A DNA stretch of 64,000 nt from NCBI GenBank assembly GCA_963811105.1, contig CAWEPZ010000009.1, forward strand, positions 352,001-416,000, read 5' to 3'. The notes under the pieces are model-generated. The model saw only the letters and a list, made by a program, of their open reading frames with translations. It did not search any database and was not told the origin of the DNA. Of the stretch, positions 43,065-53,441 are shown piece by piece; position 1 is the first letter of the stretch; each line of letters starts with the position of its first letter. Position numbers and translations under genes: made by a program. Source of the DNA: Candidatus Bathyarchaeota archaeon (GTDB taxonomy: Archaea > Thermoproteota > Bathyarchaeia > Bathyarchaeales > Bathycorpusculaceae).

Positions 43065-43670
43065 TTAAGTTAACTCGACCAAAATCTTTTCTTCAGCTTC
43101 TTTTGTTTTTTCTTCAAGCATTCTCTTCAATTCATAAACGGCTACAGTGTGAAGCAAAGCTACCTCAGTGTTTGAATTATCCTTCTCGATTAAAACTTGA
43201 AGGGGGCTACTCTTTTCTTCCAAGTTTTCGTTCATATCGAAAGATAAACTCTTTATTCTGTCGATAGCTGTCTCGAACAAAACCCTATTTGGCTTTTTCC
43301 TAAACAAGAACAACCTTTGGTTTGTAAGGTAAAGATAACCTGATCTCCAGACACCTGAATTAAACTTGTCTCGGCAATAGTGTGAACCAAATGTCTTTAG
43401 AATAATTTCTTCATTCTCATTTAACGGAGCTTCTTCATTACTTTCCGCTAATACGGATTTTCGAATCTGCTCATCCCATGTTCCCATCATGCCGTAATCA
43501 ACCATCGTTGTCAACCCAGCGATCGCGGCTTTCAAATTGATTCCAATTAAAGGAACTCCAGAAACCGAAATTATGACATCTGCATGAAGAATTACGCCTT
43601 TGACCAAGATTCTGTCAACAAGATCTACAAGAGCTCCATCTCTTGAAGGCAACAAATTAGTCTTCTCCAA
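43065..43670 (-). CDS. gvpM: GvpM-like (GvpA/J/M family) protein fused to a GRAM/PH-like domain
   Basis: LVDRIL.KGVILHADVIISVSGVPLIGINLKAAIAGLTTMVDYG...WD resembles haloarchaeal GvpM. The C-terminal W.SGYLYLTNQRLFLF is a PH/GRAM signature. Confidence 0.75.
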   Translation of the reverse strand: MEKTNLLPSRDGALVDLVDRILVKGVILHADVIISVSGVPLIGINLKAAIAGLTTMVDYGMMGTWDEQIRKSVLAESNEEAPLNENEEIILKTFGSHYCRDKFNSGVWRSGYLYLTNQRLFLFRKKPNRVLFETAIDRIKSLSFDMNENLEEKSSPLQVLIEKDNSNTEVALLHTVAVYELKRMLEEKTKEAEEKILVELT

Positions 43671-45583
43671 AATCAGCTTCTAGCAAAATAACAGTTTCTC
43701 TTAAGTTGCAGAACTCTTCAGTAACGCGTTCATATGGCGCTTCTTCAAGATTTTTTACCGAAGCTTGAAGTTTTTTCTTTTTCTCGTTCGAAAACTTTTC
43801 ACCTAATTTATCTTCCAATGCGGAAAGTAACATCTTTGCTTGACTTACTTTTTTCAACTTTGTACTCAACCCCTCCTTAAGTTCGAGAAGCTTACTACTA
43901 AGCTCTCGGACTGTTTGGAGCTCATGGTCGTTCATTGCCTCATTTAATCGGTTCAGCGCCATTTCAACCTGCCTCCTGTCTTTGTTTGAAATTTTTCCAT
44001 TAGTCTCTTCCAAGAATTTTTGTGTTGCGTAGATTGTAAAAGTTGCTCGATTTTGGTTTTCTATTAATTCCTTTTTTATCTCATCTTCTTCGATAAACTT
44101 GGTTGCTTCCATAATCCTTCTCATGAGTTCTTCCTGAGAAAGACTCTTAGTATCTGCCACTTTGGCAACTTCTAGTTTTCCTGTTTCTAAAATTTCCGCA
44201 GAAACAGTTAAAATACCGTTAGCGTCAATTTCGAACGTCACTTCCACTTTCTGTTCATATTTAGGTGCCTTAGGAATACCCTCAAGCTTAAACAAACCTA
44301 TGGACGTGTTATCCTTAGCCATCTCCCGATCACCTTGTAAAACATTAATCATCATAGATGTCTGGTCATCCTCTTGCGTTGCGAAAGTCATGTTTTCCTC
44401 TGTCGGAATAGTACTGTTTCGTTTGATTAGACGCGTAAATAATCCGCCAGAAGTTTCTACACCCAAAGACAGCGGTGTGACATCTAACAACAACATATCT
44501 CTAATTTCGCCATTCAAAATACTGGCTTGAACGCCAGCACCTGTAGCGACTATACCCATGGGGTCTATACCTATTTCTGGTTCCTTTTTAAAATAACTTC
44601 TAAAATATTCTCTAACACATGGAATTCGGGTGGGTCCACCTACTAAAATTAGATTATCTATATCTTCGAGATCCAAACCGGAGTCTTCTAAGGCTTGCTC
44701 CATGGGACCTTTCAGCCTATCAAGTTGAGGTTTGATTAATTCTTCAAGCTTATCCCGAGTTAAAGTTATGAACAAACTTGTTATGGAGTCGTTTACATTA
44801 ACCTCCGTTTTTGCTGTTGTCCATAATTCAGTTGAAAGTTGAATCTTTGCCATTTCGCCAGCATCTCTTAGTTTGTTCAAGTTCCTACAGTCATTTTCTA
44901 AGCGAACTTTGTACTTTCTTTCAACTTCTTCAATCAAGATAATCTAAAATAGCATCATCCATGTCTTTGCCACCCAGATGAATATCTCCGCTAGTGGACA
45001 TGACTTGGAATAAACCATTTTTCATATGCAGAATAGTCACGTCGAAAGTTCCAGCGCCTAAGTCCAACACAGCCACATTTAGGTTTCTTCCTGCCTTGCC
45101 TAAACCGTAAGCTAGAGAAGCAGCTGTGGGTTCACTGACTACTCTTAAAACTTCAAAACCCGCTATTTCTCCAGCTTCCTTAGTAGCGTTTCTTTGATTA
45201 TTATTAAAGTAGGCGGGCGCAGAGATTACTGCCTTGTCTATTTTCTCTCCTAAATAAGTTTCAGCGTCTCTTTTTATCTTCTTGAGTATCAAAGCCGAGA
45301 TTTGTTGAGGACTATAAACCGTGCCATCAATATTTTCAACATGATCTGTACCAATTTTTCTTTTGATCCACCTTATCGCTCGCTCAGGGTGCTCATACGA
45401 GTAGTTTTTTGCAGGTTTACCAACGAGGATTTCACCATCTTCTTTAAATGCAACAATAGAAGGGAACATTTTTCCGTTAGGAGTTGGATCTTCTGCAGCA
45501 GGGACAAGTCTTATTTTTCCATCTTTCATAACAGCGGCAGCTGAGTTAGACGTCCCAAGATCTATTCCAATGGTTCTAATCAT
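43657..45583 (-). CDS. dnaK: Hsp70/DnaK chaperone inside the gvp operon, split into ORFs 44930..45622 and 43657..44937 by a +1 frameshift (likely a sequencing error)
   Basis: IGIDLGTSNS, PAYFNNNQR, EPTAASLAYG, DLGAGTFDV, HLGG.D.D, LVGGPTRIP, LLLDVTPLSLG and FEIDANGIL motifs. The junction TAT-CTTG-ATT-GAA restores DYLIEE with one base removed. Confidence 0.9.
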
Positions 45584-45599
45584 AATGATCCCTTGAAGA

Positions 45600-46583
45600 T
45601 TATTTAGCCGCCTTTTCTTCAATTACTATATTTTCTTCGACATCTGTTTTCGTAATTGAGCAAAGGTAATGTTCACAGTATTTAGTCAGCAGAGCTTGTG
45701 CTTCCCTTATTTTCTTGAACATCTTTTCGCAGGATGGGTCATCTGGGTGAAGGTCAGGATGGTATCGACGTGCTAGACTGTTGTATGCCATGTTAATTTC
45801 AGAAATACTTACTTCTTGACTTAGACCCATGGTTTTTCTCGCTTCCTCCAATGAATCAAAATTTATCTTTTTTACACCTATTTTTGCAAAATTGTATGCC
45901 GGCAAGGGACCGACGGAAATAAACTTCAGGTAATTAACGTGTTTTTTCTCTAACTCATTCAGTTTATCATAAAAATCCTGTTCTCGACTTTTATCAATAA
46001 GGAAAGCAGCATCCAAGAGTGTTTCTTGATCAATTATTTTGTTTTCTTCTGAATCTACTGATAAGCTCTTCAGAGTGCGTGCAATACCTTCCAAGTATTC
46101 AATTTTTCTTTGATCCAGTTCAGCCTTGACTCTTTTCCCTAGCTCAATTTTGTGTGACTGATTAGCGTTTTCTTTGTTTTCGTTGACTAGTTTTCGGATT
46201 TCTGCATTTTGGTTTAAAATGTTTAAGAGCATACCTTTATCCCATGAAATTTTGACGTTAATTTGTAATTTGTGGTCGACCTTTTCCATAGTTTTTTTAA
46301 GCTTCATTCGACCATGTTTGAGAATGTTCCTTATCTCTTCATCGTCTTTGGCTATAGCTCCAAATCTCATTGGAATAACTGTATGAGGTTCCATGATTTT
46401 CCGTAAAACATCATCATGAATTCTCGCCTCTGCTCTCCCAATACAACAATTCTCGCCGATGTCGCTGACTATAACACCCATGTCTTCAAATTGAACACTG
46501 TATATTTCCCCATTATCCATTCCAATTCTGCCGAAGCTTTTTTGGCAATCAGAGTTGATGATTCCGTAAATGTATTTGGGCAT
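45600..46583 (-). CDS. GvpF/L family protein fused to a C-terminal J domain
   Basis: YIYGII, H..VL...M..TVIPMRFG and GPLPAYNF (GvpF/L), then LGL-like helix...AY..LARRYHPD..P...F..I..A (J domain with HPD). Confidence 0.85.
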   Translation of the reverse strand: MPKYIYGIINSDCQKSFGRIGMDNGEIYSVQFEDMGVIVSDIGENCCIGRAEARIHDDVLRKIMEPHTVIPMRFGAIAKDDEEIRNILKHGRMKLKKTMEKVDHKLQINVKISWDKGMLLNILNQNAEIRKLVNENKENANQSHKIELGKRVKAELDQRKIEYLEGIARTLKSLSVDSEENKIIDQETLLDAAFLIDKSREQDFYDKLNELEKKHVNYLKFISVGPLPAYNFAKIGVKKINFDSLEEARKTMGLSQEVSISEINMAYNSLARRYHPDLHPDDPSCEKMFKKIREAQALLTKYCEHYLCSITKTDVEENIVIEEKAAK

Positions 46584-46589
46584 TCATTC

Positions 46590-52523: not shown

Positions 52524-52685
52524 TCAAGTTTTTTCCTTTTTGAGGGCGTTTACCCATAACATACGTACTCTCTGTGGACGCGGAACTACCGAACAATATT
52601 GTACCATTTCTCTATGTTTTCTTAACCACTTTATTTTCTTATCCCTTTCTTGTGCGTTAACAGCGCTTTTTGGCATTTTTGACAC
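52524..52685 (-). CDS. Small basic hypothetical protein between gvpC-like and gvpN
   Basis: GGGGGTG SD; MPKSAVNAQERDKKIKWLRKHREMVQYCSVVPRPQRVRMLW; co-oriented with the operon. Confidence 0.45.
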   Translation of the reverse strand: MSKMPKSAVNAQERDKKIKWLRKHREMVQYCSVVPRPQRVRMLWVNALKKEKT

Positions 52686-52790
52686 CAATTCACCCCCTAG
52701 TTGGATCACTTTCCCGATTGATTATTCTCAATTAATACTGAAAAAAAGAAATATGGACAAGAAACAGTTTATTCTACAGATGAGGCGCAC

Positions 52791-53162
52791 TCATCCGTAG
52801 AATTGTTTCGTGTATTCTTGGTGTTGTTTTACTTGATCAGCTATACTGACTTGCATGGCAGCAATACCTGAAACCATTTCAGCGACACCAGATTGCAGAT
52901 TTCGTGTACCATCAGCGTGCATTTTTTTGGCGGCTTCTTGGAAGTTTATAGCGGTTTGATGGATACTTTTCTGCATCTCACAAACTCCTGTTAACAGATT
53001 GTTGATTCCTTCGATACGCATTTCATTGGCAGCTTCTTGGAAGTTTATAGCGGTTTGATGATAAAGTTTTCTTTTGCCATTAACGGTATTTGTATTTGTT
53101 GCTGGTGTTTTGGTTGGTTCAGTTACTGGGCCTGTTTGATTTTTCGTTTTATGTTTAGACAT
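52791..53162 (-). CDS. gvpC: GvpC-like repeat protein
   Basis: Lies between gvpA and gvpN; two 33-aa repeats (HQTAINFQEAA..M...G..NL..GV.EM); ends Y...FYG. Confidence 0.6.
   Translation of the reverse strand: MSKHKTKNQTGPVTEPTKTPATNTNTVNGKRKLYHQTAINFQEAANEMRIEGINNLLTGVCEMQKSIHQTAINFQEAAKKMHADGTRNLQSGVAEMVSGIAAMQVSIADQVKQHQEYTKQFYG
52933..53060. repeat. Exact 29-bp direct repeat with a 99-bp period within the gvpC-like gene
   Basis: GCTTCTTGGAAGTTTATAGCGGTTTGATG at 52933..52961 and 53032..53060. Confidence 0.95.
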
Positions 53163-53213
53163 TTATTTTTCAACTCAAACTTGTTTATTCTTTAAACTAT
53201 TTTTTTCCTAGAT

Positions 53214-53441
53214 TTAGGCTGCTGGAACAGGAGCAGCGATTGCTGCTTGCTCGACCTTTGTGATTTCTTCTGCGTAATGGAGGAATGTATCGACTGAGGC
53301 GACTACCACTCTGGCTTCGATTGTGAGAATTTCGATTCCAACCAATGAAGCCCTTGCCCAAGCATCGACGACTATGCCTTTGTCGAGTACGCGATCGAGT
53401 ACTTCTGCCAAACTACCTGAATCTGGACTTTGTTGCACCAT
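53214..53441 (-). CDS. gvpA: Major gas vesicle structural protein GvpA
   Basis: [63 protein letters not shown], close to haloarchaeal/methanosarcinal GvpA. Confidence 0.97.

Follow-up and report, generated by a model that had tools for sequence, protein, structure and literature searches.

A bathyarchaeial gas vesicle gene island encoding a GvpF/L-J-domain fusion beside a divergent Hsp70 paralogue

Introduction

The nearest characterized relatives of the gene island described here are the gas vesicle protein (gvp) clusters of Methanosarcina, a genus whose vesicle-forming members include M. barkeri FR-1 and M. vacuolata (PMC9501494). In haloarchaea, as exemplified by the two divergent operons gvpACNO and gvpDEFGHIJKLM of Halobacterium salinarum vac, the genes A, F, G, J, K, L, M and O are essential, and the accessory proteins GvpF, G, K, L and N are described as conserved in all gvp clusters (PMC9501494). 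According to the same source GvpA makes up the vesicle's ribs and the shell gains stiffness from a repeat protein, J and M have an early role and N enlarges the vesicles, GvpF binds GvpA, and GvpL serves as platform for a nucleation complex for accessory proteins; in the absence of chaperones GvpA, J and M form inclusion bodies, and GvpH prevents the aggregation of GvpM. In E. coli the aggregation of GvpA is proteotoxic, and assembly factors that come first relieve it (PMC12848028). Here we analyze 64,000 nucleotides from a Candidatus Bathyarchaeota archaeon (assembly GCA_963811105.1, contig CAWEPZ010000009.1, positions 352,001 to 416,000), hereafter the window, whose minus strand carries at 43065-53441 a gvp operon in which a GvpF/L protein fused to a J domain is encoded beside an Hsp70 gene.

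Within the scope of our literature search, outside of which lay supplementary tables and subscription journals, no report of gas vesicles in Bathyarchaeia and no link of GvpL/F to a J domain or Hsp70 was found, and the Bathyarchaeia-focused papers among the matches contained zero occurrences of 'gas vesicle'. This agrees with a first-pass annotation of this DNA, which knew of no characterized case in the class. The genes themselves are already in public databases, where the metagenome-assembled genome (MAG) BA2 has carried the cluster since its deposit, and for one fusion protein from a Bathyarchaeia MAG the name given by NCBI is that of a GvpL/GvpF-family gas vesicle protein. Gas vesicle genes are not new to the phylum either, since the family PF00741 occurs outside the class in five of 401 sampled genomes of the phylum and gas vesicle genes are mentioned in a figure legend of a paper on ammonia-oxidising archaea (PMC7554672).

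Results

A GvpF/L-J fusion and an Hsp70 gene in a gas vesicle operon

The first-pass annotation had read a complete gvp cluster of expanded architecture on the minus strand, and all the genes that it named were found in the list of open reading frames (ORFs) between 43065 and 53441, the junctions mostly overlapping or spanning a few bases, as claimed. Below, positions follow the numbering of the window, and profile scores (Pfam, NCBIfam) are in bits, with the curated cut-off after the slash.

53214-53441, minus strand: gvpA, major shell protein of 75 aa (PF00741 55.9/25)
52791-53162, minus strand: GvpC-like candidate, 123 aa long, containing two repeats of 33 residues (neither Pfam nor NCBIfam gave a family)
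52524-52709, minus strand: sORF1, small basic protein of ~50 aa from the likely start ATG 52676 (family unassigned)
51232-52305, minus strand: gvpN, AAA+ ATPase (TIGR02640 343.4/266.8; AAA_5 1.5e-19)
50936-51217, minus strand: gvpO (PF05800 48.9/25)
50080-50907, minus strand: regulator candidate with a C-terminal PadR winged helix and a weakly MEDS-like N terminus (PadR 31.1/27)
49396-50061, minus strand: gvpF (PF06386 141.6/23.6)
49106-49396, minus strand: gvpG (PF05120 31.7/30.6)
48627-48989, minus strand: gvpJ', second GvpJ-like paralogue with a zinc-ribbon-like C-terminal tail CPxC...CPWCGW (PF00741 23.7/25)
48235-48630, minus strand: gvpJ, with a C-terminal CPxC...CPWCGW zinc-ribbon-like tail (PF00741 59.5/25)
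47696-48238, minus strand: Hsp20-domain protein with a helical N-terminal domain (NCBIfam archaeal Hsp20 over residues 95-173, 2.5e-11)
47383-47718, minus strand: gvpK (PF05121 69.5/25)
46590-47399, minus strand: gvpL (PF06386 195.2/23.6; NCBIfam GvpL equivalog 220.9/200)
45600-46583, minus strand: fusion of GvpF/L with a C-terminal J domain (PF06386 172.6; PF00226 45.5/27.8)
43657-45622, minus strand: cluster Hsp70, two ORFs here, likely true start ATG 45583 (HSP70 250 + 318 bits)
43065-43670, minus strand: GvpM-like Gas_vesicle domain with a predicted C-terminal PH-like domain, GvpM-PH (PF00741 48.5; NCBIfam GvpM 1.6e-25)

As evidenced by the profile matches, counterparts of all eight genes essential in haloarchaea are present together with GvpN, the conserved accessory proteins GvpF, G, K, L and N are found, and the PF06386 domain occurs in three proteins. 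Of the minor GvpA-related proteins (J/M or S-type), two of which are expected in a gvp cluster, three are encoded here (J, J' and GvpM-PH), and all four PF00741 genes of the whole genome lie within the cluster. The description as complete calls for a qualification, as Hsp70 is frameshifted in the window.

The J domain of the fusion protein carries its HPD motif at residue 275, and all 15 distinct fusion genes compared, from the window and 14 relatives, keep this motif intact. Among the best 120 of 246 database matches to the fusion, all combine PF06386 with PF00226; weak NCBIfam matches include TopJ, a terminal-organelle assembly J protein. The order F/L-J fusion, Hsp70, GvpM recurs in all 14 bathyarchaeial genomes whose locus reaches that part. 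A canonical DnaK (716 bits) is encoded elsewhere on the same contig, and the gvp-linked Hsp70s of the relatives are 42-50% identical to this DnaK, which indicates that the cluster Hsp70 is a separate, divergent paralogue of the housekeeping chaperone.

In the window, this Hsp70 gene, which the first-pass annotation listed as dnaK, is divided into two ORFs, 44930-45622 and 43657-44937, that cover positions 1-234 and 235-591 of the HSP70 profile, respectively. Reading of the sequence shows that an extra base at 44936 causes a one-base shift at the junction of the ORFs. The gene is undivided in all 14 relatives (639-681 aa from stop to stop), and the base is missing from one contig each of the metagenome runs X1, X2 and X3. 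These runs supplied the near-identical contigs for comparison (93-99% alike), no run containing more than 0.21 of the sampled words of the window. Among 12 of the 21 indel rows against these contigs, 44936 is the only one to fall in a conserved ORF with a length not divisible by three, the remaining 11 being intergenic, multiples of three or located inside the rejected sORF2 (see below). The values of dN/dS, the ratio of non-synonymous to synonymous divergence, are 0.05-0.15 for the Hsp70 halves and 0.02-0.27 for all 17 ORF segments against the related locus L042 and the 16 computable ones against L044, the two closest loci, with dS partly saturated, and indicate purifying selection on all ORFs. 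The break in Hsp70 comes from an error of the assembly or else from a lesion of recent date. In L044, from genome G830 (G830:C8:164718-170832), the ArsR gene is in three pieces and the DUF763 and ABC permease genes are each in two, which suggests frequent single-base indel errors in that assembly and makes an assembly error plausible for the Hsp70 of the window as well.

Comparison with known gas vesicle clusters

The two Methanosarcina loci (L061 and L062, 13.5-21 kb) share the order A-N-O-F-G-J-K-L-M on one strand, the absence of gvpD/E and the GvpJ tail CPxC...CPxCGW with the window. Their GvpM is also long (186-196 aa), and residues 2-186 of GvpM-PH align with it at 36% identity; GvpN is 47-55% identical to that of the window and falls outside the bathyarchaeial clade. 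Both lack the F/L-J fusion, Hsp70 and the Cdc48/ArsR set that flanks the operon in the window, and in BLAST searches of them neither a homologue of sORF1 nor a 33-residue-repeat protein was found.

With the vac region of H. salinarum the window has in common the counterparts of the eight essential genes and gvpN as well as the broad order A-C(-like)-N-O ... F-G ... J-K-L-M, with an Hsp20-like protein where a GvpH-type helper would be expected. In contrast to the two divergent haloarchaeal operons, all gvp genes are co-directional here, and the ORFs scanned, limited to those of the island, contain no GvpD, GvpE or GvpI, PadR and ArsR proteins being present instead. Further differences are the duplicated, zinc-ribbon-bearing J, the fusion of M to a PH-like domain, a GvpC-like protein that has two 33-residue repeats and no GvpC family match, and the third GvpF/L with its J domain beside Hsp70. 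Clusters of DPANN-titled MAGs (Woesearchaeota and Nanoarchaeota; L058-L060) are arranged N-O-[MEDS/PadR-like]-F-G-J-K-L-M with GvpN at 52-55% identity; they have neither fusion nor Hsp70, their GvpM is short (82-90 aa), and gvpA lies on the opposite strand.

The claim of an expanded architecture is thus borne out for the F/L-J fusion and Hsp70, the only genes limited to Bathyarchaeia among the loci compared, but not for the GvpM-PH fusion, the zinc-ribbon GvpJ and the MEDS/PadR-like gene between O and F, which are common to Methanosarcina or DPANN clusters. The Cdc48 paralogue described below also occurs in a locus titled Methanocellales. Overall, the cluster is a distinct, conserved bathyarchaeial variant. 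Specialized J-domain proteins recruit Hsp70 to one structure or client, and the arrangement is similar in that a J domain with an HPD motif is joined to a targeting domain and lies beside a dedicated Hsp70 paralogue; it differs in that the targeting domain is a gas vesicle assembly protein, GvpF/L.

Distribution and phylogeny

A scan for GvpN covering one genome per species returned 21 loci, 15 of them titled Bathyarchaeota or Bathyarchaeia (including BA2, a MAG of 2015), one Methanocellales, three DPANN and two Methanosarcina. The same architecture was found in 14 bathyarchaeial genomes and is therefore a conserved type of the lineage rather than a single occurrence; in 13 genomes other than the one studied here, originating from several projects, the cluster is accompanied by the same flanking Hsp20/ArsR/Cdc48 and PadR genes. 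GvpL/F genes are present in 7 of 120 genus genomes, this one included, and the other 113 gave no GvpL/F match. At higher ranks gvp genes occur in 7 of 401 class genomes, from two families, PF00741 in 8 of 401 phylum genomes, and PF00741 in 3 of 61 of a mixed draw of relatives.

In the GvpN tree, one of the checks proposed at the outset, the 16 bathyarchaeial rows form one clade (100/99) that splits into families f1 and f24, the Methanocellales-titled row is its sister, and the DPANN and Methanosarcina sequences lie outside. GvpN identity declines from 69-82% for loci of the genus to 60-71% for the family's other genera and 55-57% for f24, and the identity of the neighboring Cdc48 falls with taxonomic distance in the same manner. 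Outside the class the nearest GvpN is 60% identical. This pattern is consistent either with a long-standing presence and frequent losses or with within-class transfer.

Several incomplete or unusual loci were encountered. In genome G044, a member of another family of the same order (L010:4880-8105), a truncated GvpF/L(C-half)-J gene of 223 aa, an intact Hsp70 of 642 aa and a GvpM-PH gene of 198 aa lie between TIP49-type ATPase and radical-SAM genes; the genome is 91% complete without a GvpA match, and the trio is the remnant of a deletion or else a module separable from the cluster. The 8.9-kb contig L050, from a Bathyarchaeia-titled MAG, runs from sORF1, N, O, PadR, F and G directly to ArsR, Cdc48, the unknown protein and Hsp20 and is without J, K, L, fusion, Hsp70 and M; it looks like a natural deletion variant. 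The Methanocellales-titled locus L053, which by its isolate name seems to stem from the project of the Bathyarchaeia MAG L048, contains gvpA, gvpN (60%) and gvpO followed by a Cdc48 gene (58%), and suggests either transfer between lineages or a question of binning. In five genomes from other classes of the phylum (G553, G557, G639, G713 and G818; loci L063-L066), three of them in one family and 1.7-1.8 Mb in size, two or three Gas_vesicle-family genes are close together.

Shell, helper and regulatory genes of the operon

The gvpA gene, preceded just upstream by the ribosome-binding-like motif GAGGTGA, reaches 130.2/100 and 126.3/112 with NCBIfam GvpA models and has a dN/dS of 0.02-0.13. GvpA is 84-99% identical across the bathyarchaeial loci and aligns over nearly its whole length with the solved GvpA/GvpB chains 8gbs and 7r1c (E 4e-23), which fits a conserved shell. 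Note that the closest relatives, L042-L044, have two tandem gvpA copies where the window has one; a joint in contigs of X1 and X2 that leads from 53458 back by 320 to 53139 fits the same duplication.

In cyanobacterial GvpC the repeat length is 33 residues. The repeats of the hydrophilic GvpC-like candidate show 24 identities at an offset of 33, and at the nucleotide level the gene, located 51 nt downstream of gvpA, contains a 43-nt direct repeat with a spacing of 99 nt and 93% identity. Homologues were found in six other genomes, all known or inferred to be of the same genus, and dN/dS is 0.13-0.26. The designation as C-like stands on the two repeats beside gvpA and not on a match to the GvpC family. 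Haloarchaeal GvpC repeats measure 32-40 residues (PMC9501494).

The small basic protein sORF1, for which Pfam and NCBIfam searches gave no match, is present in an alignment of 14 loci from the two families, in which R22, W28, R33, S40, R44, P45, R49 and W52 do not vary, and with a dN/dS of 0.03-0.10 we take it to be a genuine gene. A second short frame of the first-pass annotation, sORF2 (49020-49178), was not retained: it has no counterpart in any relative's locus, near-identical contigs show one-base indels within it, and it is probably not a gene. The candidate regulator between O and F keeps its position in all bathyarchaeial clusters and is 28-29% identical to proteins in DPANN clusters; of its earlier designation MEDS-PadR, the PadR part is above the cut-off, but MEDS remains below (26.4/29.8). 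The score of gvpJ' is just short of the PF00741 cut-off, GvpJ being its top NCBIfam model, and the gene is present in seven other genomes and absent from the same-genus genomes G030 and G230. For gvpJ the top NCBIfam model is likewise GvpJ, at 98.4 bits, and its tail motif is kept in bathyarchaeial loci and reads CPEC...CPICGW in both Methanosarcina loci.

The model of the Hsp20-domain protein at 47696-48238 (mean pLDDT 73.5) matches the alpha-crystallin domain 4rzk of Sulfolobus Hsp20.1 in Foldseek (E 3.2e-5, TM 0.74 on target, rmsd 1.8, 33% identity), and the protein plausibly takes the role of GvpH. The alpha-crystallin half of the annotation HTH-Hsp20 is supported in this way; for the N-terminal helix-turn-helix (HTH) domain, Pfam and NCBIfam gave no match, and residues 1-90 of the model form four helices and two strands that no Foldseek match covers. 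GvpM-PH has GvpM as its top NCBIfam model, and its tail is well modelled over residues ~85-200 (pLDDT ~90), with matches to the PH, GLUE and PTB folds of GRK2, Btk, Vps36 and Lam6 (E 1e-5 to 3e-4). The earlier reading of this domain as GRAM is supported by the model as far as a PH-like fold and no closer: Pfam gave weak Vps36-GLUE and bPH_3 matches, and the PH-like domain of Lam6 ranked 37th among the fold matches. The GvpM-PH fusion is found in 268 representative proteins at E <= 1e-10. A complex prediction for residues 1-240 of the F/L-J fusion with GvpM-PH (score 0.01, mark 0.32) counts neither way.

Between the PadR gene at the end of the island and GvpM-PH, ~1 kb (42006-43064) contains small ORFs only (42-91 aa) and no Rfam match. 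The bin 42535-43068 was left uncovered by all four metagenome runs compared.

Genes flanking the operon

Judging from gene conservation, the conserved unit is the island 41616-58972, with the co-directional operon at 43065-53441 as its core. It includes the following flanking genes.

41616-42005, minus strand: PadR-family regulator at the GvpM end of the island (PadR 51.5 bits)
53723-54289, plus strand: Hsp20-domain protein, divergent from gvpA (NCBIfam archaeal Hsp20 7.3e-21; weak Pfam HSP20 and GvpH)
54338-54949, minus strand: ArsR-type winged-helix regulator (HTH_5 54.6 bits)
55054-57243, plus strand: Cdc48/VAT-type double-ring AAA+ ATPase (CDC48_N and two AAA domains)
57243-58217, plus strand: conserved 324-aa protein, no assigned family, invariant HEL.EK (start overlaps the Cdc48 stop)
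58223-58972, plus strand: third Hsp20-domain protein, 249 aa, at the island end (PF00011 40.2/20.8; NCBIfam Hsp20 1.6e-24)

This flanking set is kept around the cluster in family-f1 loci, including that of BA2, and is present in part in f24. In the f1 loci, the PadR gene adjoins the cluster at 48-85% identity, the Hsp20 gene at 53723-54289 stays beside gvpA, and the one at 58223-58972 follows the 324-aa protein. ArsR is 45-84% identical in gvp loci; five of five gvp-less genomes of the genus gave partial matches of 30-39% only.

Cdc48, the 324-aa protein and the last Hsp20 (55054-58972) form one three-gene operon. Three Cdc48 copies occur in genome G000 (100, 55 and 54% identity), and the best matches in four genomes of the genus without gvp are at 54-55%, as compared to 71-94% for copies beside gvp clusters in f1, 65-68% in f24 and 58% in the Methanocellales-titled locus; by these identities we regard the gene at 55054-57243 as an extra paralogue linked to gvp clusters. 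The 324-aa protein, found between Cdc48 and the last Hsp20 in the loci of 12 relatives, has no NCBIfam family, a weak Pfam match to Band_7 (18.0/23.6) and no HExxH motif, and Atlas matches to zincin-like proteases (0.87-0.89) serve as leads only. It is translationally coupled to the gvp-linked Cdc48, with the Hsp20 gene following, and would be of interest should it act as a protease together with the unfoldase.

Beyond the island, a MinD/ParA-type ATPase gene (40513-41382) beside the PadR gene is 85% identical in the L042 locus and has no match in the other loci compared. On the other side, between the island and the DUF763 gene, lie small genes (59904-61350) identified by eye from their translations only, among them a look-alike of arsenate-reductase-type low-molecular-weight phosphatases (60226-60621), one of ferredoxin-like proteins (60618-60962) and one of ArsR-type regulators (61021-61350).

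Host and genomic position

The genome comprises 3.49 Mb in 15 contigs, with 96.65% completeness and 4.3% contamination, and the contig of the window reaches at least 416 kb. Its host is a member of the Bathyarchaeia, as proposed, the genomes of the same genus being public Bathyarchaeia/Bathyarchaeota MAGs. In other genomes the cluster is found on contigs of up to 900,798 bases, another being of 425,051 bases. Given the kinship of the host, the recurrence of the cluster with the same neighbors in other genomes and the GvpN clade, a chimeric or euryarchaeal origin is very unlikely.

The island occupies a 22.8-kb stretch between an ABC-transporter operon that ends at 39074 and a DUF763 gene that starts at 61914. 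In four relatives with gvp islands at other sites, only 1.3-4.3 kb separates the two markers, and the position of the island thus varies between genomes; the distance of the markers is 36-38 kb in two further genomes and ~1 Mb in one, and in two the DUF763 marker had no match. Across the island G+C is 0.36-0.39 versus 0.39-0.44. Neither tRNA genes nor Rfam families at gathering score were found in the window, no flanking direct repeats were convincing, no integrase was among the ORFs listed at 58.9-62 kb, and the comparison contigs yielded no read-level bridge across the junctions of the island.

Discussion

The data are best explained by a functional gas vesicle island in which, we think it likely, a J-domain-tagged GvpF/L recruits a dedicated Hsp70 to aggregation-prone proteins of the GvpA family. 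With the roles of haloarchaeal and bacterial homologues as a guide, GvpA would build the ribbed shell, the protein with 33-residue repeats would stiffen it from the outside in the manner of GvpC, J, J' and M would seed the vesicle tips, F, G, K, L and O would form the nucleation complex and GvpN would power enlargement, with the PadR and ArsR proteins taking the place of GvpD/E as regulators. J domains switch on Hsp70 at a chosen place. A fusion that has a J domain with its HPD motif and an adjoining divergent Hsp70 would deliver the ATP-driven chaperone to GvpA-family proteins or assembly intermediates bound by GvpF/L, and recruitment of Hsp70 would keep these very hydrophobic proteins soluble until insertion. 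More speculatively, the three Hsp20-domain proteins may act as holdases, as GvpH does for GvpM, and the Cdc48 paralogue linked to gvp clusters may serve to unfold misassembled protein or to pull it out. The function would be buoyancy or dispersal, and the expected phenotype flotation in water-saturated soil, peat or the pore water of sediment.

A number of points weigh against this interpretation. Gas vesicle formation is a prediction from the genes, and the client of the fusion is assigned by analogy with haloarchaeal family roles. The Hsp70 of the window is not full-length in one reading frame, and if the frameshift is real, the proposed chaperone step is missing in this genome; no GrpE-like exchange factor turned up among the ORFs scanned, which were those of the window's island, and the GvpC-like protein gave chance-level matches only against Pfam and NCBIfam at E <= 0.01. 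Moreover the trait is rare in genus (7/120) and class (7/401), and together with the cluster cut off after gvpG in L050 this implies that loss is common and the selective value patchy. The use of buoyancy is not obvious in the habitats indicated by runs X1-X3, which are labelled soil metagenome; this label also means that the picture of a deep-sediment dweller, drawn by the first-pass annotation, may not fit this genus.

The frameshift and the rarity of the trait would both be expected if the cluster were real but being lost in this strain, with Hsp70 as the first lesion of a decaying island. One extra base splits a gene that relatives and the 93-99%-alike contigs keep in frame, 113 of 120 genus members are without a GvpL/F match, and loci such as L050, cut off after gvpG, and G044, with three genes only, are what decay would leave. 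We nevertheless consider it unlikely for the window: the other 16 ORFs are intact, the low dN/dS of both Hsp70 halves means that a lesion, if there is one, is very recent, and the several split genes of the G830/L044 assembly illustrate that single-base assembly errors occur in such data. Hsp70 is also not among the known essential vesicle genes of other organisms (PMC9501494), and a housekeeping DnaK exists. The soil label of X1-X3, with the limited free water column that it implies, leads to the quite improbable alternative of GvpA-family proteins or vesicle-like structures serving a purpose other than flotation, such as cell volume, surface or aggregates, with the Hsp70/J/GvpM-PH trio perhaps as a separable module. 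The GvpM-PH fusion is indeed widespread, as its 268 representative proteins attest, and G044 keeps the trio between unrelated genes, in a 91%-complete genome with no GvpA match. Its fusion gene, however, has lost the N-terminal half of the GvpF/L domain and looks like a deletion remnant, in 14 of the 15 genomes with the trio it is inside a full gvp cluster, and a GvpA conserved at 84-99% with a near-full-length match to solved shells argues for a shell.

That the cluster is foreign, from a chimeric contig or from contamination of the bin by a euryarchaeal or other gvp-bearing organism, has hardly any probability left. Its lower G+C and the contamination estimate of 4.3% would agree with such an origin, and since only 1.3-4.3 kb lies between its two marker genes in four relatives, its junctions are both genome-specific and were not bridged at read level. 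Against this stand the same cluster and neighbors in 13 other genomes known by title or kinship as Bathyarchaeia, with contigs of 900,798 and 425,051 bases among them, and a GvpN tree in which 16 rows form one clade that splits by family, Methanosarcina and DPANN falling outside and the nearest GvpN from outside the class being merely 60% identical.

A more far-reaching version of the proposal, to which we give little credence at present, would see the island as a self-contained assembly-and-recycling machine, with Hsp70 aimed by J-GvpF/L, three Hsp20 holdases, and Cdc48 with its possibly protease-like partner bringing shell protein in and collapsed or surplus protein out, and thus providing reversible, regulated buoyancy for an energy-limited anaerobe. 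If true, it would be the first gas vesicle system equipped with an ATP-driven arm for proteostasis of its own, and might supply a portable remedy for the proteotoxicity by which gas vesicle reporter genes are limited.

The expression of acoustic reporter genes is limited by the proteotoxicity of GvpA (PMC12848028), and the island could matter for this application. For the question of how the extremely hydrophobic GvpA, J and M stay soluble and are delivered, recruitment of Hsp70 by the J-GvpF/L fusion encoded beside it offers a directly testable proposal. New candidate players, covered by no cluster from a model organism, are the Cdc48 paralogue linked to gvp clusters, the small basic protein sORF1 and GvpM-PH.

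Bathyarchaeia rank with the most abundant of uncultured archaea, and in the usual picture they live in anoxic sediment without being motile. To a few members of the class associated with soil, peat and sediment, a conserved gvp island under selection would give a means of vertical positioning or dispersal, and flotation could serve to enrich such Bathyarchaeia from samples.

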